From contig CAWHBB010000007.1 of the NCBI GenBank assembly GCA_963827485.1, forward strand, positions 22,806-86,805: a DNA stretch of 64,000 bases, in the 5' to 3' direction. Source of the DNA: Chlamydiia bacterium. Lineage in GTDB: Bacteria; Chlamydiota; Chlamydiia; Chlamydiales; JAAKFR01. Shown in pieces: positions 6,804 to 42,064 of the stretch (position 1 is its first letter; every line of letters begins with the position of its first letter). Made by a program: the position numbers and the translations under genes. The notes beneath the pieces were generated by a model. The model worked only from the letters and a program-made list of their open reading frames with translations, was not told the origin of the DNA and searched no databases.

Positions 6804-6936
6804 AAGCTATATCAAGTTAAAATTTTAATTTAAATTTGGCCCAGAAGAGCAATAAAGTCAAGATCTTCTTAGATACAGATATTTACAAAAACTTTATACT
6901 TGCTACGTTTTGAAATAGAAAAGCTTAAGAGGAAAT

Positions 6937-17453: not shown

Positions 17454-19900
17454 ACTCAGGAGTGTGGTAGGTGACCTCGAAGGAGACCAGCTCATCGCCT
17501 ACCGCAACTTCGCTAAAGCCGGAAAGAAGAATGCCACACTCAAGGCCCTTCTTCACCTCTTTGACATCGTCCTTGACCCGCTTGAGAGAGGCAATAGTGC
17601 CCTTCCAGACCCTCTCGCCCGCTCTTTCGACCCGTATCGGCATATTTCTGGCAATGGTTCCATCGGTCACCATGCAGCCAGCAACAGTGCCCAGGGTGCT
17701 CACAGGGAAGATCGCTCTCACTTCAGCACGGCCGAGATCCTTCTCTTCAGGAATCTTATCGAGCATGTTTTTCATCAGCTCCTTCACATCGTCAACCGCG
17801 TGGTAGATGATGTCGTGCAGCCGGATCTGTACCCCTTTCTCTTTGGCCATAGAGCCTGCCTTGCTCTCCACCTGGGTGTGGAAGCCCATGACCACCGCAG
17901 AGGAGGCAGCAGCCAGCTCGATGTCAGACTCAGAGATCTCTCCAATTGCAGCAAAGAGAACGTCGACCTCGATTTTTTTCGATCTGATCTTCGCAAGAGA
18001 GCTCTTGAGCGCCTCAAGCGACCCCTGCACATCGGCTCGAAGCACCAGCTTGAACACCTTTTTCTCTTTTTTCTCAGCCTCGGCGCTCAAGCGATCGAGA
18101 AGAGGCGCCTTCTTCTGCATGAGCACCTGAGCCTTATGGCCCTCAGCACGCATCTCAGAGATCTCTCTTGCCTCCTTCTCGTTTTTGACCACGACAAAGA
18201 CATCGCCCGCTTTGGGCAGCCCCGAAAGGCCGGTGATTTCGACAGGAGAGGAAGGTCCCGCCTCTGTCAGCCGCTTGCCACGCTCATCTTGCATCGTCTT
18301 GATGCGGCCAAAGAGATGGTCGATGACAAGCGCATCGCCCAGTCTCAAAGTTCCGTTTTGGACCAGGATCGTTGCAACCGAGCCCATGCCCTTGTGCAGT
18401 TCAGACTCTAAAACAATCCCACGCGCCCTTGTGGTGGGGTTTGCGCGTAGCTCAAGAACTTCTGCCTGCATCGCTAGCATCTGAAGAAGCTCCGGTATGC
18501 CCTGGCCTGTCACCGCAGAGGTGTTGACAGTGATGGTCTGCCCTCCCCAAGCTTCGGGAAGAAGCTCGATCTCAGAGAGCTGCCGATAGACATTTTCTGC
18601 GTTGAAGTTGGGCTTATCGCATTTGTTGATCGCCACCATGATCGTCACCTGGGCGCTCTTGGCATGCTCGATAGCCTCTTTGGTCTGCTCGCGGATCCCT
18701 TCGTCACCTGCAATCACAAGCACCACAATATCAGTGACTTGAGCTCCTCTTGCTCTCATGAGCGAGAAGGCTTCGTGGCCCGGGGTGTCGAGCACGGTGA
18801 TATCGCCGACCGGCGTTGTGCAGCGGAAGGCGCCGATGTGCTGGGTGATCGCACCCGCCTCCTGGGAGGCCACATTGCTCTTTCGGATAGCATCGATCAG
18901 GCTGGTCTTGCCATGGTCGACGTGGCCCATGAAGGTGACAACGGGAGGTCTGAGAGAGATTCTCGCCCTCTGTTTTCGCAATCTCTTCGCGCACGCTCGC
19001 CTTGACGACGCTGATCTTGTCTTCTAGGGTGCGGTCGACGGTGATCTCACAGGCCAGCTCGGTTCCGATAAACTGGACCATCGTCTCGTCGTCGAGAAAG
19101 TCGTTCAAGGTGAGGGTAATGCCATGCAGAAAGAGCTTCTGGATGAGCTCTGAGGTCTTTCGCTTCATCTTTTCTGCAAGATCTTTGATGGTGATCGGCA
19201 GGCGCACCGAGATCTGGGTCGGTCTCGAGGAGATCTCCTCGACTTGCATGTAGCTCTTTTTCGCTCGCTTCTTTCTCCAGCGATCGTCCTCTTCTCCTGC
19301 ACCGTGCGGTCTGAGCGGTTTATCGGCCTTTGGCTTGAGGTCGCGGAACTCCCGAACTTTCTTCTTCTTCTTGTCAGCCTCGCTCTCTACAGGGGGCGCT
19401 GCCTTTGCAGGTGCGCTTGGAGGGGGTGTGGGTGAGGATCTGATCACAGGCGTACGGAAGCCAGGTCGTGGAGTAAAGGCCGGTCTTGCTGGGGGGGCCT
19501 TGGGCGCTGCGTGCGGTGTGGGAAGCGGGGAGAGAGGCGGCTTTTCCTCTTCGGCTTTCTCTTTCGCTGGAGCCTTTTCCTCTACGGCTGCCTTTGGAAT
19601 CTCCTCTTCGACAGGGGCGGGCTCCTCGACAGCTGCAGGCTCCTCTTTGCTTGCCTGGGCAGCCGCTTCGGCCAGCTTTTCCTCTTCAGTAAGAGGCTCA
19701 AAGGAGGAGCGCGATTTTGCTCGGATGCGGCGAGGCTGCTCTTCCTCAGGCAGGGCGGCAGCAGCTGGCTTCTTGGGAGGCTCTTTCTCTTTTTCCTTCT
19801 CCTTCTTAGGCTCCTTCTCCCCAGCGAGCTTTGCCTTCAGCTTCTCCAGATCGGCGCTCTTGCCGAGCTGGATTTTTTTAATATTGAAGTTCTTTGTCAA
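17449..19900 (-). CDS. infB: translation initiation factor IF-2, read as two overlapping ORFs by an apparent 1-nt frameshift near 18960..18975
   Basis: The 389-aa N-terminal ORF (18731..19900) has a K/E/P/A-rich N-domain and ends with [30 protein letters not shown]...[11 protein letters not shown]. The 510-aa C-terminal ORF (17449..18981, TTG-extended) starts at [24 protein letters not shown] and continues through the complete G domain and C-terminal domains. Deleting one nucleotide in the CTCTCTC tract gives ...[21 protein letters not shown]. Confidence 0.8.
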
Positions 19901-23129: not shown

Positions 23130-25019
23130 CTAGTAGCGGCCCTTTTTCCCTGTTAGGTGATGGTAGTGGACGATCACAGGGCAACTCGCTCGGTTGATGA
23201 TCCGCTCTATAAAGTGAAAACTTTCTTTTGATGGAGGCGATATATCGCGCCCCGGCCAGCCGATGACGATGAGGTCGATCCGATGTTCTTTGGCAAAGTC
23301 GAGCAAGGTTTTTGAAAAATCCCTTCCGCGCACAAGCTCGATATGGCTCTTGATCTCTCCTTCTCGCAAAAGGGCCTCAGCCTGGTCGAGCAGCGCTAGA
23401 GCGATTGCGCTCCGTTTGGGCAGCGATGCATCGAGAGGGACCGCCACAGGGACCTCCATGAAATAGATGGCGGTCAGGCGAGATGAGTGCTTCTTGGCTG
23501 CATCGATGGCGTAGCTCAGGGTCTCTCGATCGCTCGGTTTCTGGAAAGCGACCAAGATATGTTTGGGGGGCTTTTCTCCCAGCTTGGGAATTTCGACCTT
23601 CTGGATCTGGAGCGAGGCCATGGGTTGAATGCCCATTTTTTTTCGATAGATCCAGAAAGCCAGGATGCCGAGAGCCATCCATACGATGCCGAGATATCTA
23701 GCGTGCGGTTTGGTGATGACGACGAGAAACCAGACCGCAAGGCTTGCCACAAGCCCTATGAGGGCTGTGATGGGAATCGAGCGGCCCCTCCAAGGCAGGC
23801 CAAAGCCCACTCTAAAGGGTCTTTTTTTCTGGGGCTGCTTCAATCGAAGGGCGATGAGGGAGAGGTTGGTGAAAAAGAAGGCGATCATCACCCCAAAGTT
23901 ATAGAGATCGGCGAGGAATTCGAGGCGGCCCCGGCTCAAAAGCACGAGAAGGATGCTCAAAGCCATGAAGATCGCAAGCGGTACGTAGGGGGTTCTGAAG
24001 CGGGGGTGGAGTTTGAAGAAGAAGCGGGGCAGCTGGTAATACTCCCCCATATTAAAAGAAAGTCTTGACGCTCCAAGGAGACCAGAATCGGCGGCGACGA
24101 AGAGGATAATTCCGGCGAAGAGCCCCACCCAGGTGCCGAGGTAGGGTCCGACGACAGGCAGAGCTGCCGCTACCCCTGCGATCGGGTCATCGCGGTAGGT
24201 GGTTCCAATGGTCTCGGGGGCGAGAACCGAGAAGGCGACGAGCGCGAGGCCCAGGTAGAGAAAGAGGAGGAAGAAGATGTTGAGCAAGAATGCGCGCGGA
24301 AGGCTTTTGCCAGGGTTTTTGGCCTCTGCACCTAGCTGTGAGATCGATTCGATTCCGGTATAGGCCACCATGGCCATCGCCGTGCCCTTGATGAAATTGC
24401 CTGTGGATGCCGACCAGCTCTCCGAGAGGTTGAGGCGCAAATGCTCGATGACCGTCGGGAGGTGAACCACGGTGATGAAACCGAGCAGGATGATGGCAAA
24501 TTGGGTCAAGATGGCGATCACGGTCAGGACAAGGCTTGTCTGGGTCGATTTGCGCACGCCGAAGAAGTTGAGCAAGAAGAGCAGGATGATGAGGGCGGCG
24601 GTTGTGCTGAGATGGGTCGTGGGATCCTTGAGAGGGGGAAATAGGAAGCTCAAGTAGGGGGAGATCGAAAAGGCCGAGATCGAGATCGTCACGATGTAGT
24701 CGAGGATAAGGCCCCAGCCTGCAATAAAGGAGACGAGATCGTTGAAGGCGTGTCTCGAGAAGCTAGCTGAGCCGCCCGATTCGGGGTACATGCTAGAGAG
24801 CTCTGCATAGCTCAGAGAGGTGCAGAGGAAGACGAAGCCGGCGATTGCAAGCGAAAGCGGGGTGGCGCCGAGGGCAAAAAAGGCGGTGATTCCGAGTGCA
24901 TAGTAGATGGAGGAGCCCACATCGCCGTAGCCGACGGCGAAGAGCTCTGAGGTGGAGAGCACCCGCTTGACCGACGTTCTGTAGAGCTGAGCTATGCGTG
25001 AGCTGTTTTCTTGCATCAC
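23130..25019 (-). CDS. APC-family amino acid permease fused to C-terminal universal stress protein (UspA) domain
   Basis: 629 aa with ~12 TM helices and APC hallmarks (FAVGYGDVGSSIYYALG). The C-terminal ~150 aa form a USP-like fold (KHILVAFQKPSD...IDLIVIGWPGR...). Confidence 0.8.
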   Translation of the reverse strand: MMQENSSRIAQLYRTSVKRVLSTSELFAVGYGDVGSSIYYALGITAFFALGATPLSLAIAGFVFLCTSLSYAELSSMYPESGGSASFSRHAFNDLVSFIAGWGLILDYIVTISISAFSISPYLSFLFPPLKDPTTHLSTTAALIILLFLLNFFGVRKSTQTSLVLTVIAILTQFAIILLGFITVVHLPTVIEHLRLNLSESWSASTGNFIKGTAMAMVAYTGIESISQLGAEAKNPGKSLPRAFLLNIFFLLFLYLGLALVAFSVLAPETIGTTYRDDPIAGVAAALPVVGPYLGTWVGLFAGIILFVAADSGLLGASRLSFNMGEYYQLPRFFFKLHPRFRTPYVPLAIFMALSILLVLLSRGRLEFLADLYNFGVMIAFFFTNLSLIALRLKQPQKKRPFRVGFGLPWRGRSIPITALIGLVASLAVWFLVVITKPHARYLGIVWMALGILAFWIYRKKMGIQPMASLQIQKVEIPKLGEKPPKHILVAFQKPSDRETLSYAIDAAKKHSSRLTAIYFMEVPVAVPLDASLPKRSAIALALLDQAEALLREGEIKSHIELVRGRDFSKTLLDFAKEHRIDLIVIGWPGRDISPPSKESFHFIERIINRASCPVIVHYHHLTGKKGRY

Positions 25020-25681
25020 TTGCGGACATAGTAGCTGACGGCGCGGAATCTTCCGAATTCATCGCGCATGAGTGCAAGCTCCTCGCGCCCTTTGTTCGAT
25101 CCGGCAAATTGGGTGTCGTAGCGCAGGAGCACGAAATAGCCTCTCGTGCCATGGGGAAGCCGATCTTGGATCTGCTGGCCGGTAGCTTTGCGCGAGCGAA
25201 CGTTGCCGAGAGGCCGGCGCGTCTTGTACATCGCACCGATCCACTGGTCCTCAGTGACGCAATCTTTGAGCAGAGGGCCTGCATCTTGCCATGCCGGGCC
25301 ATATTGGTTCTGGTCGATGAGGTTGAGGAAGTGGGAGGCCTCGCTCAGCGCATCGGAATAGACAGGGGAGGTGCTGCCTCCTTGCGTATCGTAGGGGTTG
25401 AGGTTGCGCTCAGGAGGGCCGTTGAGAAAAATATTCTCGCTCTCTGCACCCGAAGGATTGGCTCTACCGCTCGGTGCTGAGGAGAGGTATTGATCCTCGA
25501 TGGGGACAAAGGGATTGGGTCTATCTGGAGTGATGAGGGGACCTTGAGGGGCCGCCCTTCCAGGCATGGTGAAGTCTACGTCTTGAGCTGTTTGAGCCCA
25601 AAGGCAAACTGGGGCTGCGAATAGAAGGAGAGTCAGGTAGAAAAGGGATCGCATAAACACACTTGCTAAAAACAAACTCAA
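25016..25681 (-). CDS. hypothetical secreted protein
   Basis: 221 aa with a signal peptide (MRSLFYLTLLLFAAPVCLWAQ). The start may be at 25654. It overlaps the upstream permease gene by 4 bp. Confidence 0.45.
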   Translation of the reverse strand: MSLFLASVFMRSLFYLTLLLFAAPVCLWAQTAQDVDFTMPGRAAPQGPLITPDRPNPFVPIEDQYLSSAPSGRANPSGAESENIFLNGPPERNLNPYDTQGGSTSPVYSDALSEASHFLNLIDQNQYGPAWQDAGPLLKDCVTEDQWIGAMYKTRRPLGNVRSRKATGQQIQDRLPHGTRGYFVLLRYDTQFAGSNKGREELALMRDEFGRFRAVSYYVRK

Positions 25682-25966: not shown

Positions 25967-26578
25967 ATGGGAGCTTTCTACTTACCTCTTCTGAAGGGCT
26001 GTTTGACTGGAGCCGGTCTAATCATAGCCATCGGCGCTCAGAACGCCTTTGTTCTCAAGCAGGGGTTGATGAAGAATCGCGTTTTCCTCACCGCCCTCTT
26101 TTGCGCCCTTGTCGACATCCTCCTGATTGCCCTGGGGGCCATGGGTCTCGGCGCCTTCATCACCAGCCACACCGCTCTGCTCGCAGTCGCCAAATGGGGA
26201 GGCGCCGGTTTCCTCTTCTGGTATGGGCTGCGCTCTTTTCGCTCGGTTTTTAGCAACCAAACCCTCGAATGTGTAGGAGAGATGCGTCCACCTTCGCTGA
26301 AAGAGACGATCGTGACGCTTGCGGCCATCAGCTTCCTCAATCCCCACGTCTACTTGGATACGGTGGTGCTGCTCGGTACGATTGGGGCGCAGTTTGAAGC
26401 GAGCCAAAGGCCTCTATTTGCCTATGGTGCCATGCTAGCTTCGCTTTTTTGGTTCTTCGGACTCTGTTATGGAGCGCGGCTCTTGCGACCTTTCTTTGAA
26501 AATCCAAAGTCGTGGAAGCTGCTCGAATTTGCCATCGGCTGCATCATGTGGTTCATCGCCATTACGCTGTTGGTCTGA
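25967..26578 (+). CDS. LysE/ArgO-family amino acid exporter
   Basis: 203 aa with six TM segments. The N-terminus (LLKGCLTGAGLIIAIGAQNAFVLKQG) is typical of LysE-type translocators. Confidence 0.8.
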   Translation: MGAFYLPLLKGCLTGAGLIIAIGAQNAFVLKQGLMKNRVFLTALFCALVDILLIALGAMGLGAFITSHTALLAVAKWGGAGFLFWYGLRSFRSVFSNQTLECVGEMRPPSLKETIVTLAAISFLNPHVYLDTVVLLGTIGAQFEASQRPLFAYGAMLASLFWFFGLCYGARLLRPFFENPKSWKLLEFAIGCIMWFIAITLLV

Positions 26579-26581
26579 CGA

Positions 26582-27513
26582 TGGGAAAATTGCGTTTAAA
26601 AAAATATTTACCATGGGTACTCCCTCCGCTCATCTTTGCCACTCTCTTGGGCGCATTTCTTTGGAGCACGAAAGAGGATTTCGATCCGAAGAGATTGGCT
26701 AAGGCTCAGATTCATCAAGAGGGGAGCGCGCTTCCGGCCGATGAGATTTTAAATCAGCCCTTCACCTACCTGGCTAAGGGATGCCAGAGCTACGCCTTTG
26801 TGAGTGCCGATCAGAGATATGTGCTCAAGTTTTTGAAAAGCCGCCATTTCTCTCCTTCGAAATTGACCCATTGGAGCTGGCTTCCGGGGATCTTTCAGAG
26901 ATGGGTTGCGAAGAGCAATGCGCGTCATCGAAAGAAATTGGACCAGATCTCGATGAGTTTTCTCGTTGCCTTCAACTCTGCTCGAGAGGAGACAGGGGTG
27001 GAGCTCGTGCATTTGGGATGCGGCGGCGATAAGAGAAGAGAGATCGCGCTTATCGATCTACAAAATCGCATCCACCCCATCGTGCTCGATGACTACATCT
27101 TCTTCCTGCAGAGGAAAGCGATTGCTCTGGAGGGGATTCTAGATGAGATACGATCGGGCTCGAGTGCGTGGCAGATGAAGCTCTGTTTAAAGGCGGTCAT
27201 CGCTCTGACAAAAGAGAGGTGCAAAAAAGGGGTTGGCGATGGCGATTCAGCTGTGGTGCAAAATACAGCGATCTGGCCCACGCGCACTCCTGAGGGCGAT
27301 TATAGAGCTCTCTTTATCGATGTGGGGCAGTTCTTCGAAGATCCTTCGCTCAAAGAAAAGGAGGCGATCCAGAGGGAGGTCACCTTCCGCATGCATTCGA
27401 TTTTCTGCTGGATAAAAGATCAGGCGCCCGAGCTCATGAGTTCATTCAAAGAGGCTCTTCGAGAGCTCGAGATCAGCACTGCAGGCCCTGAGTGGGATTT
27501 CGACATCGTTTAG
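26582..27513 (+). CDS. membrane-anchored hypothetical protein, possible atypical kinase-like fold
   Basis: The ATG at 26582 gives MGKLRLKKYLPWVLPPLIFATLLGAFLW (signal anchor). It has a Gly-rich-loop-like AKGCQSYAFV, a Lys-containing RYVLKFLK, and a later IDVGQF (DxG-like) motif. The fold assignment is tentative. Confidence 0.4.
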
Positions 27514-28266
27514 AAAAGAGATGAAAAAAGTGGCAGACTTGCAAGAAATAGGCGCCTCTATTCCCTCTCTTTCTAGATAGCCTCTCATCAGAGCTGCGAG
27601 ATTCTCAAGCTCGTGGCTCTCGAAATCGCCCAGCGCCAAGACCATTTCGAGGATCTGAACGACACCGGTGAGGTATTCTCTATGTGTGCGCTCCTCCTCA
27701 TCCTCTAGCTCATCGAAACTGCCGAGATCGATAAGTGTGAGCTCTCCCTCGCGATCGATGAGGAGGTTGGAGCTGTAAAGATCGTTGTGGATTAGGGAGT
27801 AGCTAAAGGCCAGTTTCAGGGCATCGATAAGCCCGAGAGCACTGTGTAAAGCCTCTTTCTTCTCTAGATATCTGAGAGGCGTCTCTCTCAAGGTTTTCCC
27901 CTCGATGTAGGGCATTATGAGATAGGTGTGGAGCCTCCCTTCCTCGATATCGTTGAAGATCGACTCGATTTTTAAGATGCGCGGATGGTCGAGCATCTGT
28001 CCCACACCATATTCTCCAGCGGCGATGAGCGAAGTTCCATCGGGGGCAAAAAGTCGATCCAGCATCTCCTCTGGCACCTTTAAAGCAACCTCTTCTCTGC
28101 TGTACGACCTCTTGATCGCTTTGAGCTCGCCGAGCTCGTCTTGCGCAAGGAAAACCTCGGCTTGATCACCTCTTCCAATCTGAGAGAGGATCTCATATTG
28201 CGATAGCGAATGGGCAAGGAGAGTGGAGGAGAAGAACCAAATTGAAAGTAACTGTTTGAGTATCAT
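27442..28266 (-). CDS. secreted eukaryotic-type Ser/Thr protein kinase
   Basis: 274 aa with a signal peptide, a Gly-rich loop (IGRGDQAEVF), LKAIKR (VAIK-like), HNDLYSSNLLID (HRDLxxxN-like catalytic loop) and IDLGSF (DFG-like). Confidence 0.7.
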   Translation of the reverse strand: MILKQLLSIWFFSSTLLAHSLSQYEILSQIGRGDQAEVFLAQDELGELKAIKRSYSREEVALKVPEEMLDRLFAPDGTSLIAAGEYGVGQMLDHPRILKIESIFNDIEEGRLHTYLIMPYIEGKTLRETPLRYLEKKEALHSALGLIDALKLAFSYSLIHNDLYSSNLLIDREGELTLIDLGSFDELEDEEERTHREYLTGVVQILEMVLALGDFESHELENLAALMRGYLEREGIEAPISCKSATFFISFLNDVEIPLRACSADLELSKSLFE

Positions 28267-29336
28267 GCAGCCACTTCGTTGAGTGTTTCTTCAGGAAAGA
28301 GATTCCAGCTCGCATCTAGGAAGCTATTGAGCTCTTCGAGGGAGGTGCGATAGGTATCGATCCTCCTCCAGAGTTCTTCTGCCGATTGCATCAGCGTGCG
28401 CCCATAGAGGGTGCGCAGGTGGATATCGGCCTCGAGGATATTCACCCAGCTCAAGAGCCTCTCATGGTTTCTTCTGTAGACCTCCAGGCTCTTCTCGGAA
28501 AAGGGCAGCCGATCGACATATCGAGAGAGCGCCCCGGCCTTCTCTACAAGCTCTCTTGCTAGCTCACAGAGCTCATCTCGGCTCATGCGGTTTGCCATTT
28601 CAGAGTTTAGGGGCAGATAGCTAAAAGCGATGGAGTAGAGAATATTCTCGATTTCGCCAAAGCGGTAGGCCTCGCCATCGAGGGGCTCAAAACGGCATCC
28701 GAAGGCGATGTGGGGGCGCATCTGGAGCAGCGAGGCGAAGAAGCTGGGTTGGTTGATGTTCATGCCATCAAACCACGCCTCAGCAAGCTCATCCTCCCTA
28801 TCGTCGCTCGACATGCGCACGGCCCACCCTCCACGCATCGCAATTGCTTCATCCACTGCCTCGCGCAAGGTGCAACTTAGAGGGTCGTAGAGGTGGAGCT
28901 CGCAGGGAATTCTGCCCGGGATTGGGTAGGAGAGAGGCATGACCAGGATCGCTTTTTCTCCCAAGAGGTAATCTCCTAAGATGAAGGTGTCATAGCAGTT
29001 CAAGTTGATGGTTTGAGGAAGGATTTCAGAGAGGGGAGTGACGACGGCGAAGGGACAATCCTCCCAGCTGATCACCCCTTCGACGGGTCGCACCATTTCC
29101 CCAAGAGAGAAGTGGACTGTGCACCTGAAATCGGGAAAGAGCTCCTCCGGGATCGGTCCAACGAGACTCTCCTTGCCTCCAATGCCCGCATGGAGGATGC
29201 CATCTTGAGGCAGCCTTCTCGTTACATGGACCGCATAGAGCTTTTGAGCAATCGTCTCCTCAGGCAGATCGGTGGCAAGACAGGGGAAAGAGAGCGTCGC
29301 GCTAAATAGAACAGCGACAAGAAATCTGATTTTCAT
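28263..29336 (-). CDS. hypothetical secreted protein, translationally coupled to the downstream kinase gene
   Basis: 357 aa with a signal peptide (MKIRFLVAVLFSATLSFPCLA). Its stop overlaps the kinase start (ATGA, 4-bp overlap). Confidence 0.5.
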   Translation of the reverse strand: MKIRFLVAVLFSATLSFPCLATDLPEETIAQKLYAVHVTRRLPQDGILHAGIGGKESLVGPIPEELFPDFRCTVHFSLGEMVRPVEGVISWEDCPFAVVTPLSEILPQTINLNCYDTFILGDYLLGEKAILVMPLSYPIPGRIPCELHLYDPLSCTLREAVDEAIAMRGGWAVRMSSDDREDELAEAWFDGMNINQPSFFASLLQMRPHIAFGCRFEPLDGEAYRFGEIENILYSIAFSYLPLNSEMANRMSRDELCELARELVEKAGALSRYVDRLPFSEKSLEVYRRNHERLLSWVNILEADIHLRTLYGRTLMQSAEELWRRIDTYRTSLEELNSFLDASWNLFPEETLNEVAA

Positions 29337-29544: not shown

Positions 29545-30096
29545 CTACCTGGTCAAGACGCCTCTGATCTTCCTGCCAAGATTGAGCGAGGAGTCGCTCT
29601 CTCTGCCTTTCACTTTGTTGTAGGGATTTCCGCGGCCGATCGTCCCCACTGCCCAGGGGTAGAGGATATCTTTCACGTCATAGCCGCCCCTGATGTGTAG
29701 TTTGCCTTGAGAGTCGATGTGGACTTTGACCTCACCATCGCCATCGTAGAAGATCACCGCATAGAGAATGCGCTCCTGGTTGAAGAAGGAGAGGCCCCCT
29801 TTGCACCTCAGCCAGACATGGAATTTCCAGTGGGGACGGTGATAGCCTGAGTGGCCTGCATCTTCGAAGATGATCTGGTATCGATGATCGCTCGATTGGA
29901 TGACAGCTCCTGGGGTATCGATGAGAAGAGGCAGGGGTTTGCCCCAAGAGGTAGCTCTCGGCAATGGACGGCCATCGGCCAGATTCTTGCAAAAAGCGCG
30001 GTTGGATTCGTTTTTAAATTCGACCAGCTTGATCCTCGCCTCGAGACCGAGAGAGCCCAGGACAAAAGCTGCGGTTAATAGGACTAATGATCTCAT
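29545..30096 (-). CDS. hypothetical secreted protein
   Basis: 183 aa with a signal peptide (MRSLVLLTAAFVLGSLGLEA). Confidence 0.45.
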   Translation of the reverse strand: MRSLVLLTAAFVLGSLGLEARIKLVEFKNESNRAFCKNLADGRPLPRATSWGKPLPLLIDTPGAVIQSSDHRYQIIFEDAGHSGYHRPHWKFHVWLRCKGGLSFFNQERILYAVIFYDGDGEVKVHIDSQGKLHIRGGYDVKDILYPWAVGTIGRGNPYNKVKGRESDSSLNLGRKIRGVLTR

Positions 30097-30399: not shown

Positions 30400-31461
30400 A
30401 TGTTCTTTAAATCCAAGTTACCCAAATACTTAATTCTATTATTTGCCGCTCTTGTGCTGACGGTGCAGCCTCTGAACGCTCTGATTGGAGCTGCAGCTCA
30501 GGCGCAAGTTGTTGATTCTAAAGTATTTACAAAAGAGATTGAGTCCAAAGCGCTTCTTTTCAGCAATCATGATCCGCAGGCGCGCCCTTCTCCCTTGAGT
30601 GGATCTGCCTATGAGCTCATCGAGCATGCAGAGCGTTCCCTGCTATTCATTACCTTTACCTTATCCGATCCAAAAACCATTCAATTGATCAATCAGAAGG
30701 CAAAGCAGGGCCTTGAGGTGCAGATCATCATGGATCGAGACCATATAGGGCGCCTCAGAGAGGCGCTTGATCCTAAGGTACATATTGGAACGAGGCTTAC
30801 AGGAGAGGGCCATGTGCACCATAAGATTCTGGTTGTCGATGAGGCCTATGTCTGGCTGGGTTCGGCCAATTTCACCTTTGGAGGGGATAAAAATTTGGCG
30901 ATTGGGTTTTACAGCCCTGATGCGGGTCGATACCTGCATGAAGAGGCTGCCTACATCGAATCGGGAGAGCAGCGACTAGATGCAAGTCCGATTACAATTG
31001 CGCTCGGTGCCCAGCGGCTCGATCTCTATGTATTGCCCCACCATCAGCCAGGTAGCATCCGTCCTATCGAGCAGAAGATGAATGCAAACTCTTGTGAGAA
31101 GATCCTTCAGCTCATCCACCATGCTAAGAGGGAGATCAAGCTTTCAGTGGCAGTTCTTACCTACAAAGAGATAAGCCGCGCCCTCATCGCGGCAAAGCAG
31201 AGAGGGGTAAAAGTCTCGGTCTGCACCTGCGATTTGAATCAGGAGGCGGTCAGTCTATTGAGGCAAGCCGGGATTCCTGTCCGATCTGCGGCGGCCCATT
31301 ACAAGTGGATGCTCGTAGACGATCAGATCTTGCTCAACGGATCGCCTAACTGGAGTATGAATATGTTCTCGAGAAGCGACGAGAGCTTTATCTTGCTCTA
31401 TGATTTTACCGCTGAACAGCTTGCGCACATGAGCGCGATTTGGAAAAACCTGGTGAATTGA
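30400..31461 (+). CDS. phospholipase D family protein (two HKD motifs), secreted
   Basis: 353 aa with a signal peptide. HKD motif 1 is HHKILVVDEAYVWLGSANFT. HKD motif 2 is HYKWMLVDDQILLNGSPNWS. Confidence 0.8.
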   Translation: MFFKSKLPKYLILLFAALVLTVQPLNALIGAAAQAQVVDSKVFTKEIESKALLFSNHDPQARPSPLSGSAYELIEHAERSLLFITFTLSDPKTIQLINQKAKQGLEVQIIMDRDHIGRLREALDPKVHIGTRLTGEGHVHHKILVVDEAYVWLGSANFTFGGDKNLAIGFYSPDAGRYLHEEAAYIESGEQRLDASPITIALGAQRLDLYVLPHHQPGSIRPIEQKMNANSCEKILQLIHHAKREIKLSVAVLTYKEISRALIAAKQRGVKVSVCTCDLNQEAVSLLRQAGIPVRSAAAHYKWMLVDDQILLNGSPNWSMNMFSRSDESFILLYDFTAEQLAHMSAIWKNLVN

Positions 31462-33946: not shown

Positions 33947-34035
33947 CCCCTAACATTTTTCCAGAGAGGGGGATTATAAAGAAAGTACCTTGTAAAATCT
34001 AAATCGGATTTAGAAAATACAAGGTAAAAGGAGTG

Positions 34036-34781
34036 TTACAGCTTAAAGAGGTAGTTCAAGCCCAATCGAAAGGCATCGACATGGCTCTTGCCGATGGAGA
34101 CATTGAGGCCATTATTAGGAGTAGCGGCGTTGGGGAATATGACCCTTTTGGTAGGACCGCTGCCAAATTGGTAATGCAGGTATTCGGCACGCACCGACCA
34201 TCTCGAAGCAATCATGCGCTCATAGCCCGCGCCCACAACCCAACCCGTTTTAGTCTTGCTGAAGTTGCCAGATGTAGCCTGGCCATATACTGCCGGTGCA
34301 GTTTCCGCAAAATCGAGTGTTTTCCCCTTGAGATGCGCCCAGGCAGCGCCCCCCGTTACATAGATAAGGCTTGATCTCCATACCATCCCCAAGCGGCCGC
34401 GGATAGTGGTTAACCATTGGAGGTCAGCATATACCGATGATGCATTGGTTGACATGTCTAATGTCGGTGGCAGAAAACCTGGAAAAATGGTGCTTTTATC
34501 TTCTATACCGAGTACCGAGCATCTGACCTGCTTATTGAAACCGACTTGGCCTCCAAAAAGCGGGCCATTGATCTGATTGTGAACCGATTGGGGTGTGAAA
34601 TCGTTTATTGCCGTCACACCAAATGGGGTCGCATTGTAATTGCTTGGGACCAACCCCAACCGCCGTTAAAGCCGATGTAGGTGCTAGTCCAGCAAGGATT
34701 AGGAGAGCAGTTGATGTTAGCAGAGAGAGCGGCATGTCCAAAAAGGAGCACTAAAACCGAACATAGAGAAAAACGCTTCAT
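34036..34781 (-). pseudogene. OmpA/Opa-like outer-membrane beta-barrel paralog, frameshifted near 34650..34666
   Basis: Reading from ATG at 34781 gives a signal peptide MKRFSLCSVLVLLFGHAALSA...GFNGGWGW, then a stop. The ORF 34036..34659 in the +1 frame continues with homology to the 61121-63686 paralogs (TTIRGRLGMVWRSSLIYVTGGAAW...GWVVGAGYERMI...RLGLNYLF). The frame break sits in the GGCGGTTGGGGTTGG tract. Confidence 0.55.
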
Positions 34782-34879
34782 ATAACCCCCGTAAGCCTTT
34801 GTTCGAGCTATGCCGAATCTCTATCTTATTTGGAAATATTTTTTTGATGCCTTAATGGTAAAGGCGGGTAACAAAGGAT

Positions 34880-34923
34880 CTCCGGGTGTAGGATTCGAAC
34901 CTACGACCAATGGATTAACAGTC
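34880..34923. repeat. 44-bp direct repeat of tRNA-Asn 3' end (distal att site of integrative island)
   Basis: Identical to 44402..44445 (ctccgggtgtaggattcgaacctacgaccaatggattaacagtc). Confidence 0.85.
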
Positions 34924-35148
34924 TTGTGCAACCCCACAGGTCACAACAACGCACGAATGGTAACGGCAATAAGATTAAATGTTTAGAGAAATTTGCTTTT
35001 GGTAGTGGCTTGTGGCGTTTGGCAGTTTTTTGCCACGGAGTGGGGTAAAAATGGGGAATGATTATCTTCACATAAGTACTGGAATTGGCCTTCTTATTGT
35101 ACCACAAGGGCCTCCAATCAATCTTGCTCTTTAATTTAAATACATGAC

Positions 35149-35562
35149 TTGTTAAAATATACAAAATTTGGTATGCTCATGGTTAGTGAAGAAAGGCATC
35201 TAGAGTACATATCCTCTAGCAAGAAGGATTTAGAAAAACTCCCATTGGATGTAAAAGAAATATTCATTCACGGACTAGAGTTAGCATTAATCGGGGAAAA
35301 GCACCCTGATGCTCAGCCTATGAAGGGTTTTGGTGATGCGAGTGTACTAGAGATTCGCGAAAGACATAAAGGGGATGCCTATAGGGCAATGTACACAGTG
35401 AGATTTGAAAAAGCTGTATATGTCCTTCATGTCTTCAAGAAAAAAAGCAAGAAGGGGATTGCAACGCCAAAACAAGATATTGATCTAATCAAGGCAAGAC
35501 TTAAAGCAGCAGAAACCCATTATAAGGAACATTTTAAGGGTAAGAAAAAAAATGGAAAATGA
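35149..35562 (+). CDS. type II toxin, RelE/HigB (Gp49-like) family
   Basis: 137 aa. The motif YRAMYTVRFEKAVYVLHVFKKKSKKG is typical of Gp49/HigB-like toxins. It overlaps the next gene by 11 bp. Confidence 0.6.
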   Translation: MLKYTKFGMLMVSEERHLEYISSSKKDLEKLPLDVKEIFIHGLELALIGEKHPDAQPMKGFGDASVLEIRERHKGDAYRAMYTVRFEKAVYVLHVFKKKSKKGIATPKQDIDLIKARLKAAETHYKEHFKGKKKNGK

Positions 35563-35944
35563 AGAAGAAATTGTAGAAAGTTCCGGAAATATTTTTGAGG
35601 ATCTCGACTTTCCTGATGCTGAGGAAGCTCAAGTCAAATCAAAATTAGCAATCGAGATCTTTCTCATCATCAAAGCAAAAAAGCTGACCCAAAAAGAAGC
35701 TGCAAAAATCATGAAAACAGATCAGCCCCATGTTTCCGACATTTTGAGAGGCAAATTATCCAAGTTCACGATTGATCGGCTTTTTCGTTGTTTACTCGCA
35801 CTTGGCAAGGACGTCGAAATCAAAATTAAAAACCCGAAAAGTAAAACTGAGTCGCCTAGAATTTATGTGAGAGATGGTACAAAAAGAGCACCCATAGCCG
35901 TCAAGGGAGCTGCTAAGCAAGTATCAAAAAAACTCCGGGTGTAA
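35552..35944 (+). CDS. HTH (XRE-family) antitoxin, HigA-like
   Basis: 130 aa with a helix-turn-helix (LTQKEAAKIMKTDQPHVSDILRGK). The toxin-first gene order matches higBA-type modules. Confidence 0.55.
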   Translation: MENEEEIVESSGNIFEDLDFPDAEEAQVKSKLAIEIFLIIKAKKLTQKEAAKIMKTDQPHVSDILRGKLSKFTIDRLFRCLLALGKDVEIKIKNPKSKTESPRIYVRDGTKRAPIAVKGAAKQVSKKLRV

Positions 35945-36094
35945 GATTCGAACTTACGACCAGTGCATTAGCAGTCTTGTGCAACCCCACAGGCCACAAC
36001 AACGCACGAATGGTAACGGTAATAATAAATGTAGCAGCTTGTGGATTTTGATCATTTTTTCGCCGCGGAGTGGGGTGAAAGTGGGAAATGAATA

Positions 36095-37165
36095 TTAATC
36101 AATAGGGTTTAAAAGAATAGCATGGCCATCGCCAATACCCACCATTTGACCACGGTCATTAATACCAGCTACGTGACTAATACTGCCAACAGGGCAGCTA
36201 AAATCAAAAGCTAAATTTAATATTTTATTTAGATCGATTTTTTCTTCTCCATCCAAGATAAAAAACCGTATAGGGTAATACTGTTGACCATATGTTGATG
36301 TGCCAACTATTTGGCCGCTGTTGTTAAGGCACACTGGGAAGAAATCTTTGTGTAACTTCAGGCCTGTTTCCCTATCCAAAATATAGCCATAGCAATCCCA
36401 ATCAGAAGTTAGAAGCGTACCAATTGCAACTCCTTGGTTGTTCAGCCCTTCGCAGCTTGCATAGCCTTTGAAGTAAAATACATCATCATAGCGGCCGGTT
36501 TTCGGATCAAGGAATCGAAATACATTTTTTTGGCGATCCAATGCATCGACTAAAAAACAATCTTTCTTAGAATTGAATCTGGCAGAAATGATGTGATGTC
36601 CGAAGTTGAGAAAATCACCATCATTCCAAGTAAAAAGAGAAGTAATGCCATCTTCTGTTTTGAAAAAAATCAACTGGCCATCATTGCATATATCAAATAA
36701 CCGCAAGTAATTGTTTATGCAATTTGGAATAGCAAGCTTCTTGAGATTTCCATTTCTCAAAATAAAGAACTCCGGAAAATTTTTACCTATAGCACAGCTG
36801 CGTTCGTCACGTATATGAACGTCATATTGAACGGCGAGTGTTCCGTCATTATTTAACACTACTTTTTGCGCATAACTATGCTCGAATGTCTTAATTCCAC
36901 TATTCACAATCGGAGTAATATGGTCTTTGATTTTAAGCTTTTTGAAGCCATTGATTGGATCCCAAAGGAAAACTTTTTGACCCTCACCGTTGTCATCATT
37001 GTAAAGACCGCAGACCTGTCCCTTCTCATTGATCGAAAGATCGCTTACACTTTTTACGTCTGTAACTCCATAATCCAGAACCATAACTTGATATTTTGAT
37101 ATTGCAAAAAGCGAGGGAACGATACCGCAAAAAAACAAAATTGAGAGAAAAAACTTAAAAAACAT
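36095..37165 (-). CDS. secreted HAF-family extracellular repeat protein
   Basis: 356 aa with a signal peptide. Repeated NxxGQVVG-type motifs occur (INEKGQVCG, LNNDGTLAV, LNNQGVAIGT, LNNSGQIVGTS, INDRGQMVGIGDGHAILL). The gene is very AT-rich. Confidence 0.5.
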   Translation of the reverse strand: MFFKFFLSILFFCGIVPSLFAISKYQVMVLDYGVTDVKSVSDLSINEKGQVCGLYNDDNGEGQKVFLWDPINGFKKLKIKDHITPIVNSGIKTFEHSYAQKVVLNNDGTLAVQYDVHIRDERSCAIGKNFPEFFILRNGNLKKLAIPNCINNYLRLFDICNDGQLIFFKTEDGITSLFTWNDGDFLNFGHHIISARFNSKKDCFLVDALDRQKNVFRFLDPKTGRYDDVFYFKGYASCEGLNNQGVAIGTLLTSDWDCYGYILDRETGLKLHKDFFPVCLNNSGQIVGTSTYGQQYYPIRFFILDGEEKIDLNKILNLAFDFSCPVGSISHVAGINDRGQMVGIGDGHAILLNPID

Positions 37166-37423
37166 TGTTTATCTAAACATTTACATTTGGAAGAGTTAGA
37201 TTATATTGAAAAACGATGAAGACGTCAAATAAGACCGTTGTTTTCGATTTATTTTAATTTGGGGTTTTTGCATGCAAGAGGGTAGTGGTGAATGGCTTAT
37301 CCTGACTTCCGTGATGCATTTCCATTGCCACTAGGAAATCAATGAGTTAATTTTTTTGCATCACGTTACACATATGCCCTCTCTAACAGAGTTGTAGTGA
37401 TCTGGCGATCTAATCGAGTCGCC

Positions 37424-38041
37424 CTACAAATAAGCTCTCATCAGAGATGCAAATCCTTTTAACCCGCTAAATTTAGCGATTCCCCTTATCATCAATTCTT
37501 CATGCAAAGCCTCTATTTGATCTCTAAGCCTGTAGAATGTCTTCCAATGCATCCATTTGGGCTTGTCTAAAATGAGATCCGAATCAGCTCCAAGCTTGCG
37601 AATAATGGCCCATTTCTTATCAATTAACCGATCCAATGCGGTCTTGTTTTGGCTTCGATAGGCGAGATTCAGGCATGTTCTGCACACAAATACCGGCATC
37701 CCATCTGATAATCGATAGAGATAGAGCTTACCGCATCGTCTTAGGCATTTTGGATTAGGACATCGCATCCAATATCTAGAGTTCCCATAGTTGGCCTTAG
37801 ATTGCACGAACTGGATGCGCAAAATCCTTGTGTTATCTTCTGATACGTAGCGGATTTCCATGTGGCTTCGCAACACCAAGACTTTTAATCCATGAATAGG
37901 AATTTCTATGCCTTGTTCTGGCAGCTTCTGCATAATCTTGAATAGGAACATGCCTGCGCTGATCGATTTATGCTCCTGAATAAACCCTTTCGTTCTATGC
38001 GTATTGAAACGTATGCATGTCCCTGAGCCTGGCCCCCCCAT
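37424..38041 (-). CDS. hypothetical protein with Cys4 zinc-ribbon motif (island cargo)
   Basis: 205 aa with CPNPKCLRRCGKLY...FVCRTC. No recognisable family. Confidence 0.35.
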   Translation of the reverse strand: MGGPGSGTCIRFNTHRTKGFIQEHKSISAGMFLFKIMQKLPEQGIEIPIHGLKVLVLRSHMEIRYVSEDNTRILRIQFVQSKANYGNSRYWMRCPNPKCLRRCGKLYLYRLSDGMPVFVCRTCLNLAYRSQNKTALDRLIDKKWAIIRKLGADSDLILDKPKWMHWKTFYRLRDQIEALHEELMIRGIAKFSGLKGFASLMRAYL

Positions 38042-38315
38042 TATTCCACCTATACCGCTATTCTATACGAAATCATTAGGCAACCTTATTCCATTCACTT
38101 TTTGCCTAATTGTGAAAAACGCCCTAGATTTTGATAAGTTTATCAAATACAACCCCAAGCTTTCTGAGTCTCCACTTTTGCGCTGATGTTGAAGGCTGGT
38201 CTTTACATTTGTTATGTAGCACCTCCTCTGCAGCTTTCCTAAGCTCATCATTCGTCATCGATCCAAGATCTTCACCCTGCATACCTTACTCTCTAATTTT
38301 TTTTAATCGCATAGT

Positions 38316-39323
38316 CTATGAGCTTTCAATATTGCTAAGAAACCACTCGTTCAAATTGAGTCCTTGTTCGATCGCCTCTCCGATATCTTTTCCTATGGGC
38401 ACTGGCAATGGCCTTGCATGTGGGTATAGCTTTTGCCACTTAGCCAGCATCGCCATGCCCCCTTCGTCATTATCATGGCAGATAAGAAGGTAAGGTTTGC
38501 GCTTTGCCCAGTAATCCGCGACATTGTCGGGAGTCTTGGTATTGCTTCCAACCGAGATGCAAAAGGCAATATCACCACACGCATAGTGTGCTGCCAATGC
38601 GTCTAGCTCTGATTCCACTACAAGCATTACTAGCCGTTGAAAAGACCCTACGATATTTAAGCCATTCATAGACCCCCTCAATTGCCAATATTTAGGAAGA
38701 TCGTCATCAACTTTCCATTGGGTGCGCCGTATCTTTACCCGGGTCACCTTGCCTGAAGGCTCAAGCGAAGGAATCACTATACCTCTAGGTAAAAAGATCT
38801 TTTTTTTGCCTTCTAATCCGAACTCCTCCGGTGACACCCAGGTGTCATTGATACAATAACCAAGCTTATAACGCTCGATTGCATCCTCAGGAAGGCCTCT
38901 TGATTTTAATTTTGCGAACTTAGCAGGGGACAATCTGAGCTGGCCATTTGCCCAATCAACGAATTCCAGGGCCCGTTCACACCACTTATCATTAGGAGGG
39001 ATAAGAGTCGGCCTAGAGAACGGCTGCTCAATGTGGGACATTTGTGAAGGCCGCAGAGTTATCTCTGCGTTGACGCGCTTACATGCATCTTCAAATGAGA
39101 GCCCTAGAAAGTCACGACAGAACTGGATCGAGTCGCCTCTTTTCTCGCATTTCCTACACCAATAATTGCCAATGCAATTCCTTGAAGGCGATCGAGGCCA
39201 CATACGAAATCTGTCACTGCCGCCGCAGGCAGGGCAGCTTGATGAATATTCGCTTCCTTTAGGCGAGCTAGATTCGAGCTTCGGATTCAGCCCTACCTCC
39301 TTTGCCAGTTCAAGTAAAACCAT
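38316..39323 (-). CDS. DNA primase, zinc-finger (CHC2-like) plus TOPRIM domain
   Basis: 335 aa with CPACGGSDRFRMW...CRKC, then TOPRIM-like acidic motifs (LVVESELDALA; CHDNDEGG). Confidence 0.65.
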   Translation of the reverse strand: MVLLELAKEVGLNPKLESSSPKGSEYSSSCPACGGSDRFRMWPRSPSRNCIGNYWCRKCEKRGDSIQFCRDFLGLSFEDACKRVNAEITLRPSQMSHIEQPFSRPTLIPPNDKWCERALEFVDWANGQLRLSPAKFAKLKSRGLPEDAIERYKLGYCINDTWVSPEEFGLEGKKKIFLPRGIVIPSLEPSGKVTRVKIRRTQWKVDDDLPKYWQLRGSMNGLNIVGSFQRLVMLVVESELDALAAHYACGDIAFCISVGSNTKTPDNVADYWAKRKPYLLICHDNDEGGMAMLAKWQKLYPHARPLPVPIGKDIGEAIEQGLNLNEWFLSNIESS

Positions 39324-39968
39324 CTATAAATCCTTTTAGGTCATAGTAGATCATTTTGGACCTAGTTCTGGTCATCGTAGAAATGTGCTGTAACTTGCTC
39401 ATTTTCATCGATTGGCTACAGATGTCATGGTGGTCGGGGCATTTTGGAACTGCTAAGTAAAAAAATCATTGGGCTGCTGTGCTGAACTCTCATATCTAAC
39501 GCTATGGATCCTTATTTGTACTATGTCCGCACTATGACCACTATGACCATCTATTGAAAATGAAAGACTTATGGTGTCATGCCTACTATGACCGAGCCTT
39601 GGTCGAGGATGCATCTGCTGTGACCACGCTAACTCCATATAGAAGATCGACCTTAAAACTTTTTTCGAAATCCTTTCTTGCTCTTCCAAGTCCTGGAACG
39701 ACGTATAGATTTTCTCGCTTAGAGGATTCTGATCTCGCCCTCTTCTGATAATTGAGCTAATGTGCTCTGCCTAGGCTCTGCCTTAGCCTTTCTTTTGAAT
39801 CATGGAACAATCCTTGCTTCTTGCACCAATTGCAATAATAGTTAAATACTGACCTCGGTAGGGATTTCATTTTTCATTCATAAGACGGCTCTCGATCTAA
39901 TCTGCCGATGTTGAAGCAACCGGTTGATAGGGCCTCGTAGATATATTTTTCGGGTGTTCGAGCGCTCA

Positions 39969-41103
39969 TCATTTTACTTCAAACGCTTCTGTATCGGGTG
40001 CGGAGGATTCTAGATCGTATGCAGAGATGTCTTCATTGAGAAGTTCATAGAGAAGCGCTTGTAGACCCCCATTTTTCATCTCATCGGCAATCGCTTTGAA
40101 GTACTGGGATGTCTTCTTTGTGAATATCGCTTACTTTTAAGACCAGGAAGCGCCGATCGTCTGGATCGATGTGAACTGGCCACTCTTCATTACTCGAGAT
40201 GATCACGTGCTTGAAATTGCGCACCATGATTCTATCTTTACCTTTGCCCTCGATTAGTGAGAATTCGTCGGTGACCATAGACTTCAGGACGCCAATATCC
40301 TTCTTATGTCCGCCCCATATGGCCTCGTTGGCGTGGATTAGGACTGCGTTCTTGAGATGAAAGTTGAATTGACCAAGGAGCTGCTGAATGTTATCTAACG
40401 GAAGGTAGTGAGCGCCAAATACCTCTCCTATGGGGTTCACAAAAGTGTTTTTCCCCACTCCTTGCTGGCCCATTAAGACAAGGCCAGTTGCTAGCAAATT
40501 GGGATGTTGAACTAGATGGGCAAGCCATTTCCAAACATAGGTGAAGTGTTCTGGTTTGCCTGCGCAAATCACTTCTAAGATGTGTTTCTGATAGAGATCG
40601 CAGCTTCCTTTTTTCTGCTCAATAGCAAAGCCCTTCCACATGTTATAGAGGCCATTTTTGTGCCCTGTGGTCGTCGGATCAAATGTGATCCCTTGATACT
40701 GGCGTCGTTTAGGGTGCGCTAGCCACAATCTAGCTACGTTTTTTGGCTTGCCATCTTGCCCTGCGATGACTCTATTCTCATATGTGTTTAGGAAAGATTG
40801 TCTGCTCTCTAGGGTGAAATCAACCCCTTTGGAAAATGGATGAGGTTTTTCAGTGAGGATATAGAACTGGTCTGTGTGTATCACAGCATGTTTTTTATTT
40901 AATTCCTCAACTGTTTTCTCTTCGGGAGGGAGCAGATTGTGAGCTTTTTCTTGCAGTTCTATGAGCTTGCTTATTTTGTCAGAGTCCCAGGTGTCGCTCC
41001 CTGGGATATCCTTCAGTTCAACTCTCAACAGATCTTCAACGGAGAAGGCCAGTCCGAGTGCTGCAAGTTCACTTTTGATGTTCGATTTTAAATCAGACAT
41101 CAC
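39969..41103 (-). pseudogene. P4-type primase C-terminal/helicase (D5-like NTPase) gene, frameshifted near 40100..40125
   Basis: The 340-aa ORF 40081..41103 has a Walker A (LMGQQGVGKNTF) and ends at ...SDIHKEDIPVLQSDCR. The +1 frame continues with a plausible protein tail (KTSQYFKAIADEMKNGGLQALLYELLNEDISAYDLESSAPDTEAFEVK, stop at 39969). Confidence 0.55.
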
Positions 41104-41354
41104 GAATCAATCCCATAGGTTTTTAAGTTGGTTGAGCTATTGCGAATGAATTCAATCACACTTGCTTGGGGAATCACGCGGCGGCGTGGTGAGATCTTGA
41201 CATAGGGCAAGAGACCTTTTAATAAAGCCATGCGAGCTGCTGCCAAGGAACCAAAAAAGCCGACAGAGGTCAATTCTCGAAGCGAATAAAAGGGTTTGTC
41301 ACCTATCGCTTTATGCAGTTCAGCAATTAATGCATCTAAAGGTAATGTGGGCAT
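41100..41354 (-). CDS. AlpA/excisionase-like HTH DNA-binding protein
   Basis: Likely start MPTLPLDALIAELHKAIGDKPFYSLRELTSVGFFGSLAAARMALLKGLLPYV. It is short and sits next to the primase, as in P4-like elements. Confidence 0.4.
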   Translation of the reverse strand: MPTLPLDALIAELHKAIGDKPFYSLRELTSVGFFGSLAAARMALLKGLLPYVKISPRRRVIPQASVIEFIRNSSTNLKTYGIDS

Positions 41355-41951: not shown

Positions 41952-42064
41952 ATTGCCTCCTTATTTTTTTGCCATTCCCCAGAGGCCATTACAGGCATGC
42001 TTAGGATTGCTCATCATTGTACCAAAAGGGGAGTGGTATGAAATTTGCCATTTTCAAATAGACA

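Follow-up and report, generated by a model that had tools for sequence, protein, structure and literature searches.

A putatively exported minimal eukaryotic-type kinase beside two unannotated, enzyme-like proteins in a chlamydial genome

The window analyzed here is a stretch of 64,000 nucleotides from a Chlamydiia bacterium (GenBank assembly GCA_963827485.1, contig CAWHBB010000007.1, positions 22,806 to 86,805 of the forward strand), and our interest lies in three adjoining genes within it that we call A, B, and C (Table 1). Gene A encodes a small protein kinase of eukaryotic type that probably carries an export signal. Immediately upstream, gene B encodes a putatively exported protein from an unannotated family, and gene C, which converges on A from the other strand, encodes a protein with a predicted membrane anchor and a predicted protein-kinase-like (PKL) fold. 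We give a probability of roughly 0.6 to the reading that these are three independent exported enzymes whose adjacency is not a conserved working unit. By this account, three independently evolving genes would encode exported enzymes of a signaling type, rather than the components of a dedicated two- or three-part system. An independently made Logan assembly of this organism (L001) gives identical calls for all three genes. The open reading frame (ORF) of C opens at 26512, and the ATG backed by homology is at 26581. An earlier sequence-only reading of this locus had correctly recognized this ORF, but it placed the start at 26582, which is out of frame and meets 12 stop codons. A scan for promoters and terminators returned fewer sites than expected by chance and was not used as evidence; in and between the convergent genes A and C, it showed no terminator-like site.

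Table 1. Features of the A, B, and C locus (positions are those of the window)
Feature	Position	Strand	Basis
Gene A, minimal eukaryotic-type Ser/Thr kinase with putative N-terminal export signal, 274 aa	27442..28266	-	ORF map and Pfam Pkinase
A residues 1-20 (MILKQLLSIWFFSSTLLAHS), putative Sec signal peptide, possible cleavage between AHS and L	28207..28266	-	heuristic
A residues 24-195, kinase core	27682..28197	-	Pfam alignment range, StkP/PknB alignments, motif positions
ATGA, overlap of B stop codon and A start codon	28263..28266	-	sequence
Gene B, putatively exported protein of an unannotated family, 357 aa	28263..29336	-	ORF map, homologs, AlphaFold2 model
B residues ~26-220, alpha/beta domain, candidate H-H-h type ADP-ribosyltransferase (ART) fold	28677..29261	-	
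B residues 224-342, C-terminal helical bundle	28311..28667	-	
Gene C, membrane-anchored protein with predicted PKL fold, 310 aa	26581..27513	+	
C residues 6-30, predicted N-terminal transmembrane helix (signal anchor)	26596..26670	+	
C residues ~47-295, predicted kinase-like domain with K83, D222, N228, D247-V-G249	26719..27465	+	
Convergent overlap of the A and C 3' coding ends, 72 nt	27442..27513	both	
LysE/ArgO-type exporter gene, stop codon 2 nt before the C start	25967..26578	+	

The product of A matches the Pfam Pkinase model (PF00069) at 58.4 bits (E=9.4e-16), where the gathering cut-off is 31.7, which upholds the kinase assignment made in the sequence-only reading. It also matches 229 solved kinases in the PDB at E<=1e-3, with pneumococcal StkP at the top (2e-9), and its best overall matches (Pkinase, StkP, PknB, and CaMKK2) are true protein kinases. 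The motifs GRGDQAEV (residues 31-38), LKAIKR (48-53, including K52), IHNDLYSSN (159-167), and IDLGSF (179-184) form a set that lies far beyond chance. They supply a Gly-rich loop (G31-x-G33-xxxx-V38), a catalytic loop (H160-N-D162-LYSS-N167), and a metal-binding D180-L-G, to which E85 adds the alphaC glutamate. Residue-level alignments with StkP and with Staphylococcus aureus PknB pair K52, E85, D162, N167, and D180. Judged from these alignments, A is a genuine Hanks-type kinase of the eukaryotic protein kinase (ePK) class, in which the catalytic Lys and both Asp residues are present and conserved. The kinase assignment thus withstands, at the level of alignments, the check for these residues that the sequence-only reading had set.

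A word-indexed search with A recovered only the protein itself and two matches of about 30% identity, and it was an exhaustive HMMER search that revealed the family; it lists 219 proteins at E<=1e-10, of which 18 reach E<=1e-30. The highest-scoring hits are 240-310 aa long and align end to end, and the short-kinase family around A has at least 50 members. Two relatives already bear the JGI label 'serine/threonine protein kinase'. In an alignment of 35 of these proteins (A3), residues G33, A50, K52, N167, D180, and F184 are invariant, G31, V38, E85, and D162 are conserved in at least 90%, and every member matches Pkinase. Such a conservation pattern points to an active enzyme rather than a pseudokinase. 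Scans of viral contigs yielded no relatives of A or B.

The sequence-only reading credited A with every ePK landmark. The Gly-rich loop, the Lys, the HND, and the DLG are indeed there, but the catalytic-loop Lys is not, and the regions that should follow the DLG cannot be recognized. The Lys in the HRDLK motif of Ser/Thr kinases is replaced by Tyr164 (DLYSSN), and the family consensus is H-x-D-L-x-S-x-N in the catalytic loop and IDLxSF at the DFG position. The Pkinase match covers profile positions 1-156 of 263 and ends just past the DLG. In the alignment of 35 proteins, the roughly 90 residues after IDLxSF hold no conserved APE-like motif, and neither this alignment nor the Pfam match reveals an activation segment, an APE, or subdomains IX-XI. 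Because the match stops after the DLG and these elements are not recognizable, A is a minimal kinase that, in its C-lobe, appears to resemble stripped-down kinases such as Bud32 or RIO. Secondary matches to ABC1, RIO1, APH, and Bud32 models within residues 113-204 fit such a reduced C-lobe, and ABC1, RIO1, and APH are matched by 27, 15, and 14 of the 35 aligned members, respectively. In short, A is a truncated new variant, bearing a probable export signal, of a very well-known enzyme class.

A kinase trimmed in this way need not act on proteins. Perhaps A phosphorylates a small molecule, lipid, or glycan, or serves as an ATPase in the style of Bud32, RIO, or APH within the bacterial envelope, rather than acting on host proteins. 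The end of the Pkinase match at position 156 of 263, with no APE or P+1 loop, would suit such a function, as would the secondary matches noted above. The loop HNDLYSSN, which lacks the Ser/Thr-kinase Lys, resembles the HGDL(S/T)xxN of the Bud32, RIO, and APH families. We nevertheless regard this alternative as unlikely. In its N-lobe and in its best overall matches, A sides with true protein kinases, and the minimal effector kinases OspG and NleH phosphorylate proteins even though they have no activation loop. We therefore continue to treat A as a putative catalytically competent, minimal Hanks/ePK-type kinase in which the residues for ATP binding and phosphotransfer are kept. Such an enzyme would bind ATP-Mg through K52, E85, N167, and D180 and transfer phosphate with D162 as the base. 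Given that it has no recognizable activation segment, it should be either always active or under the control of a protein that binds it, as other minimal kinases are.

Evidence for the export of A, B, and C comes from hydrophobicity and charge heuristics only, for which we used the Kyte-Doolittle maximum over 10 residues and a threshold of 2.0. These maxima are 1.63 for A, 2.47 for B, and 2.40 for C, with possible cleavage sites between AHS and L in A and between CLA and T in B. The N-terminus of A follows the order of n-, h-, and c-regions expected of a signal peptide, AHS occupies positions -3 to -1 (Ala at -3, Ser at -1), and the kinase core begins directly after it, at residue 22-24. Moreover, this segment aligns with the strongly hydrophobic N-termini (2.5-3.2) of the closest relatives of A (P0120-P0123). 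The signal peptide proposed for A in the sequence-only reading is therefore plausible, and we consider export of A likely, probably by means of a Sec-type signal. If so, the kinase would work outside the bacterial cytoplasm, whether in the periplasm, in the inclusion lumen, or in the host. The genomic context of A relatives is variable, which is compatible with a putative role as a host-targeted effector.

Hydrophobic N-termini by the same heuristic occur in 16 of 35 members of the A family, 27 of 34 members of the B family, and 78 of 82 members of the C family. The other A-family members have hydrophilic N-terminal extensions of similar length that are often rich in Ser and Thr. The family thus seems to use two kinds of N-terminus and possibly two export routes, and one could speculate that the hydrophilic extensions are type III secretion signals.

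These same numbers bear on whether A is exported at all. Were the N-terminal stretch not an export signal, A would be an ordinary regulatory Hanks-type kinase of the cytoplasm. Its h-region value of 1.63 lies under the threshold, and hydrophobic N-termini are missing from over half of the family. Furthermore, the periplasm of free-living Gram-negative bacteria is not known to contain ATP, which would normally make a periplasmic kinase implausible. Set against this are the signal-peptide layout with its AHS, which aligns with unambiguous signal peptides of the closest relatives, and the absence from A of any sensor or regulatory domain, with the kinase core starting right after residue 22. In addition, chlamydiae import host ATP through ATP/ADP transporters of the inner membrane (PMC1951785), and so their periplasm should hold ATP. 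On balance, a cytoplasmic A strikes us as improbable, and we retain the view that it is exported.

The start codon of A overlaps the stop codon of B in the sequence GCTGCATGATAC, just as the sequence-only reading had reported, and this 4-nt overlap suggests that, here, a single transcript carries both genes. The further proposal that B serves the kinase as a partner, regulator, or chaperone finds no support in a comparison of loci. B belongs to a family of 34 proteins that is never beside a kinase at 22 other loci, and it has an enzyme-like set of invariant polar residues of its own. Among species-representative genomes, we found 19 loci with B homologs, and when all ORFs at these loci were searched with A, B, and C profiles using hmmsearch, A and C were absent; they were found only in the window. 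A complementary metagenome scan with 11 close A sequences gave 5 loci with A homologs, where a profile search detected neither B nor C, and both are likewise missing beside the A homolog P0123 (one JGI contig). In total, no kinase is near B at 22 other loci, and no B is near the kinase at 6 loci.

The neighbors that B homologs do have are varied. Of the four closest homologs (46-57% identity), two are followed by a convergent gene, which is a zf-MYND gene in one case and of unknown kind in the other; the remaining two are followed by a 157-aa gene of unknown kind and by a histone-deacetylase-family gene. The last of these also overlaps the B stop codon by 4 nt (locus L031, B at 110-961). Within 3.5 kb of B at 23 loci, no gene family recurs consistently, and the sole shared one is present at 3 loci. 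The B homologs at L031 and L029 adjoin eukaryote-like or conflict genes; at L029 (B at 6001-7053), the neighboring genes encode a zf-MYND protein and an Ntox50 toxin, the latter accompanied by a MafI2 immunity gene. In the window, signal-like hydrophobic N-termini are also present in the products of the flanking genes at 25016..25681 (-), 29545..30096 (-), and 30400..31461 (+), which are a DUF4019 protein, an uncharacterized 183-aa protein, and a phospholipase-D-like protein with two domains. A, B, and C therefore lie in a local cluster of exported-protein genes, and their adjacency probably reflects this cluster rather than a conserved module.

It would be natural to take the 4-nt overlap as evidence of a functional pair, and we believe that this reading, which the locus comparison corrects, is wrong. 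A dedicated pair, in which B regulates, chaperones, or is modified by the kinase in the manner of a meta-effector, has some attractions. The ATGA overlap would place both genes on one transcript and may couple their translation, and A and B both have putative export signals. If B is ART-like, the pairing of a kinase fold with an ART even has a precedent in Legionella, where the kinase-fold glutamylase SidJ acts on the ART domain of SidE. Among the loci compared (22 others with B and 6 with the kinase), however, this arrangement is not seen outside this genome, and B homologs elsewhere adjoin or overlap quite different genes, such as those of the histone-deacetylase and zf-MYND families. Overlaps of 4 nt are, moreover, common among unrelated neighbors in compact genomes. 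A dedicated A-B pair is accordingly very unlikely in our estimation.

Several considerations nonetheless weigh against the reading of three independent exported enzymes. The h-region of A is only moderately hydrophobic (1.63), 19 of the 35 aligned family members have hydrophilic N-termini, and the export calls come from heuristics of hydrophobicity and charge. The state of the A C-lobe is read from alignments alone. With regard to independence, the 4-nt overlap argues for co-expression of A and B, and a functional link specific to this lineage is possible. Many of the comparison contigs are short.

What B does on its own is suggested by its conserved residues. It has no Pfam or NCBIfam match, and a word-indexed search found 34 homologs. 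Twelve columns are invariant in the family (H37, T73, H75, F76, G79, V82, W91, A97, Q108, N111, D116, and F118), and the polar residues among them look like an enzyme-like set. An AlphaFold2 model of high confidence (pLDDT 92.6, pTM 0.88) divides the protein into an alpha/beta domain (residues ~26-220) and a helical bundle (224-342). Residues on strands 1, 2, and 5 define the ART superfamily, and in its H-H-h clade these are His, His, and a hydrophobic residue; in human TRPT1, the corresponding motifs are HGT, HLA, and NGV (PMC7955679). In B, H37 and T39 (HVT, or HAT in the family) fall in a predicted strand at 34-39, H75 (in R-x-T-V-H-F-S) falls in a predicted strand at 73-78, and D116-T-F118 opens a predicted strand at 117-120. 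Thus, B displays the H-H-h pattern of HxT on strand 1, His on strand 2, and a hydrophobic residue on strand 5, all invariant or nearly so.

The sequence of Escherichia coli KptA (LYHGT...RHYVHLS) offers a direct comparison, and an hhalign comparison with the B family pairs FRCTVHFSLGE with ERHYVHLSADE at a non-significant E value of 0.83. None of the 34 B members matches a Pfam ART family beyond scattered chance hits. A Foldseek search of the PDB with the B model returned only meaningless matches to ligand-gated ion channels (TM <0.2), and a search of PDB sequences with the B profile returned only noise, with Cas1 at the top (E=0.046). The His-His-hydrophobic residues on strands 1, 2, and 5 are what lead us to lean, with somewhat better than even confidence, toward an exported enzyme with an H-H-h-type ART fold, which is a good lead rather than a result. 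As such, B would be a separate exported family in which an NAD+-using ART-fold enzyme is fused to a helical bundle. We hold this description with moderate confidence, and B probably binds NAD+. The family may add a new branch to the ART superfamily. Longer forms of B (~560-840 aa) that have no signal peptide are present at loci L011, L013, L014, L015, L016, L017, and L021, in bins labeled Patescibacteria, Gracilibacteria, an archaeon, Elusimicrobia, Xenobia, and Actinomycetota. Either the gene has spread widely by horizontal transfer among host-associated lineages, or these contigs were binned wrongly.

Gene C has no Pfam or NCBIfam match, a Pfam scan of its family (C and 81 homologs) gave no meaningful match to a kinase family for any member and only scattered chance matches, and its profile finds 0 matches among PDB sequences at E<=10. 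Its motifs are LAKGCQSYAF (residues 64-73), YVLKF (with K83), GDGDSAVVQN (with D222 and N228), and IDVGQF (with D247 and G249). In the family, these become a GKGxQSYVF loop, V-L-K83-F, D-x-D222-xxxxx-N228, and I-D247-V-G249-Q-F, with Q177, D222, N228, D247, and G249 invariant and K83 conserved in at least 90%. An hhalign comparison places D222, N228, and D247 of C on D162, N167, and D180 of the A family, with an E value of only 0.03. Structural modeling predicts that C is a bilobal kinase fold with the full K/D/N/D catalytic set, which agrees with the suspicion of the sequence-only reading that the convergent gene encodes a kinase-fold protein with a membrane anchor.

The predicted helix at residues 6-30 of C would make it a single-pass, membrane-tethered kinase. 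Of the 74 family members in which a hydrophobic segment stands out clearly, 55 have more Lys and Arg on its N-terminal side; the mean counts are 2.6 ahead of the segment and 1.2 in the 15 residues that follow. By the positive-inside rule, we infer from these counts that the kinase domain faces the periplasm. The LysE/ArgO-type exporter gene just upstream, which is itself preceded by two tRNA genes, is probably co-transcribed with C given the 2-nt spacing and shared strand. The neighborhoods of three C homologs (L033-L035) are housekeeping-like, with A, B, and LysE absent beside them. Named sources of B and C homologs are Rubidus massiliensis, Parachlamydia, Waddliaceae, Rhabdochlamydia, and Chlamydiales assemblies, and the C family recovered so far is mostly from chlamydial assemblies. 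These sources make an environmental chlamydia the most likely origin of the window. It is very doubtful that A or C is a pseudokinase serving as a scaffold or binder, despite the missing catalytic-loop Lys and activation segment in A and, in C, the unusual spacing of D222 to N228 (6 residues) and the lack of a kinase sequence-model match, because the near-invariance of the metal- and ATP-binding residues in A (K52, E85, D162, N167, and D180) and C (K83, D222, N228, and D247) is not expected of pseudokinases.

The remainder of the window holds features of other kinds. Housekeeping genes include rpsA, nusA-infB-truB, groEL, and tyrS. The infB gene (IF-2) is split into two overlapping ORFs in different frames at 17449..19900 (-), with the IF2_N domain on 18731..19900 and the GTPase and IF-2 domains on 17449..18981, which could reflect a frameshift or an assembly error. 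A stretch at ~34000..44473 has a G+C content of 0.39-0.45, versus about 0.52, and includes a phage-type integrase gene at 43068..44126 (-) that directly adjoins a tRNA gene at 44402..44473 (-). Also in this stretch are genes for a primase zinc-ribbon protein (38316..39323) and a DUF5906 protein (40081..41103), and the whole looks like an integrative mobile element inserted at the tRNA gene. We considered whether A, B, and C might be on a mobile element and rejected this idea, as the element is at ~34-44 kb and of lower G+C content, whereas the three genes lie in DNA of 0.52 G+C beside housekeeping genes. An IS110-family transposase gene is located at 51883..53028 (+).

B and C appear to be unannotated families that represent new branches of known superfamilies. 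We found no description of the A, B, or C families in the literature, nor any of Sec-exported or periplasmic bacterial kinases in chlamydiae. A family of minimal ePKs with putative Sec-type signals, together with a kinase-fold family that is invisible to Pfam and is predicted to face the periplasm, would suggest either an unrecognized route for effector export or phosphorylation in the periplasm or inclusion lumen of these energy-parasitic bacteria. In contrast, known bacterial effector kinases use type III or type IV secretion and have no Sec signals. Because ATP imported across the inner membrane must exist outside that membrane, extracytoplasmic phosphorylation by A and C is biochemically possible. 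One might speculate that chlamydiae carry out nucleotide-dependent modification of proteins or the envelope outside the cytoplasmic membrane, with A and the type II-anchored C, from two unrelated kinase-fold families, and maybe B, operating in the periplasm or inclusion lumen. These enzymes would be fueled by host ATP, or by NAD+ in the case of B, crossing the periplasm toward the chlamydial nucleotide transporters. This idea, extracytoplasmic phosphorylation by A and C included, is a long shot at present. If true, it would provide a bacterial counterpart of the kinases of the eukaryotic secretory pathway and the Toxoplasma vacuole, in a compartment where such activity is normally thought impossible.

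Among known systems, A is most readily compared with the Hanks-type kinases StkP and PknB (PF00069), with which its Gly-rich loop, VAIK Lys, alphaC Glu, catalytic Asp and Asn, and Mg-binding Asp align. Unlike these kinases, A is only 274 aa long, begins with a putative export signal instead of residing in the cytoplasm, and carries no PASTA, transmembrane, or sensor modules. Where they have HRD, DLKPxN, and DFG, it has HND, DLYSSN, and DL(G/x)SF, and it shows no recognizable activation segment or APE. The apparently reduced C-lobe without an activation loop in A and C is shared with Bud32 and RIO and also with OspG and NleH. Weak matches to RIO1 and Bud32 models at A residues 113-192 add to the likeness with Bud32 and RIO. 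However, the N-lobe of A is clearly ePK-like, and A and C fall under the curated score of every Bud32 and RIO model. OspG and NleH differ from A in that they are type III secretion substrates without Sec signals.

Like A, the Legionella kinases LegK1-4 and Chlamydia Pkn5 are small or stand-alone eukaryotic-like kinases of host-dependent bacteria with variable genomic context. Their delivery depends on type IV or type III secretion and involves no Sec signal, whereas Sec-like N-termini are present in A and roughly half of its family. For C, the family of the LPS core heptose kinase WaaP and the Kdo kinases (PF06293) offers a parallel as an envelope-associated, minimal kinase fold. However, 0 of 82 C-family members match it in sequence, and WaaP works on the cytoplasmic face of the membrane, whereas the C domain is predicted to be periplasmic.

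The closest likeness proposed for B is to the RNA 2'-phosphotransferase Tpt1/KptA (PF01885) and DarT, with which it shares an invariant His on strand 1 (HxT), a His on strand 2 (R-x-T-V-H-F-S versus R-H-Y-V-H-L-S in KptA), and the Asp/Phe of strand 5. The likeness is limited in that B has no significant sequence or Foldseek match, has no N-terminal RNA-binding lobe of the kind found in Tpt1, and carries a putative signal peptide and a C-terminal helical bundle. Finally, eukaryotic kinases such as POMK, Fam20, and FAM69/DIPK (type II anchor), along with WNG1 and the ROPKs of Toxoplasma, have no specific sequence relation to the proteins described here, and the resemblance is one of architecture and predicted location only. 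In that respect, the probable signal peptide of A, followed directly by a kinase core, parallels the layout of kinases that are reported to be secreted into a parasitophorous vacuole (PMC6442604).

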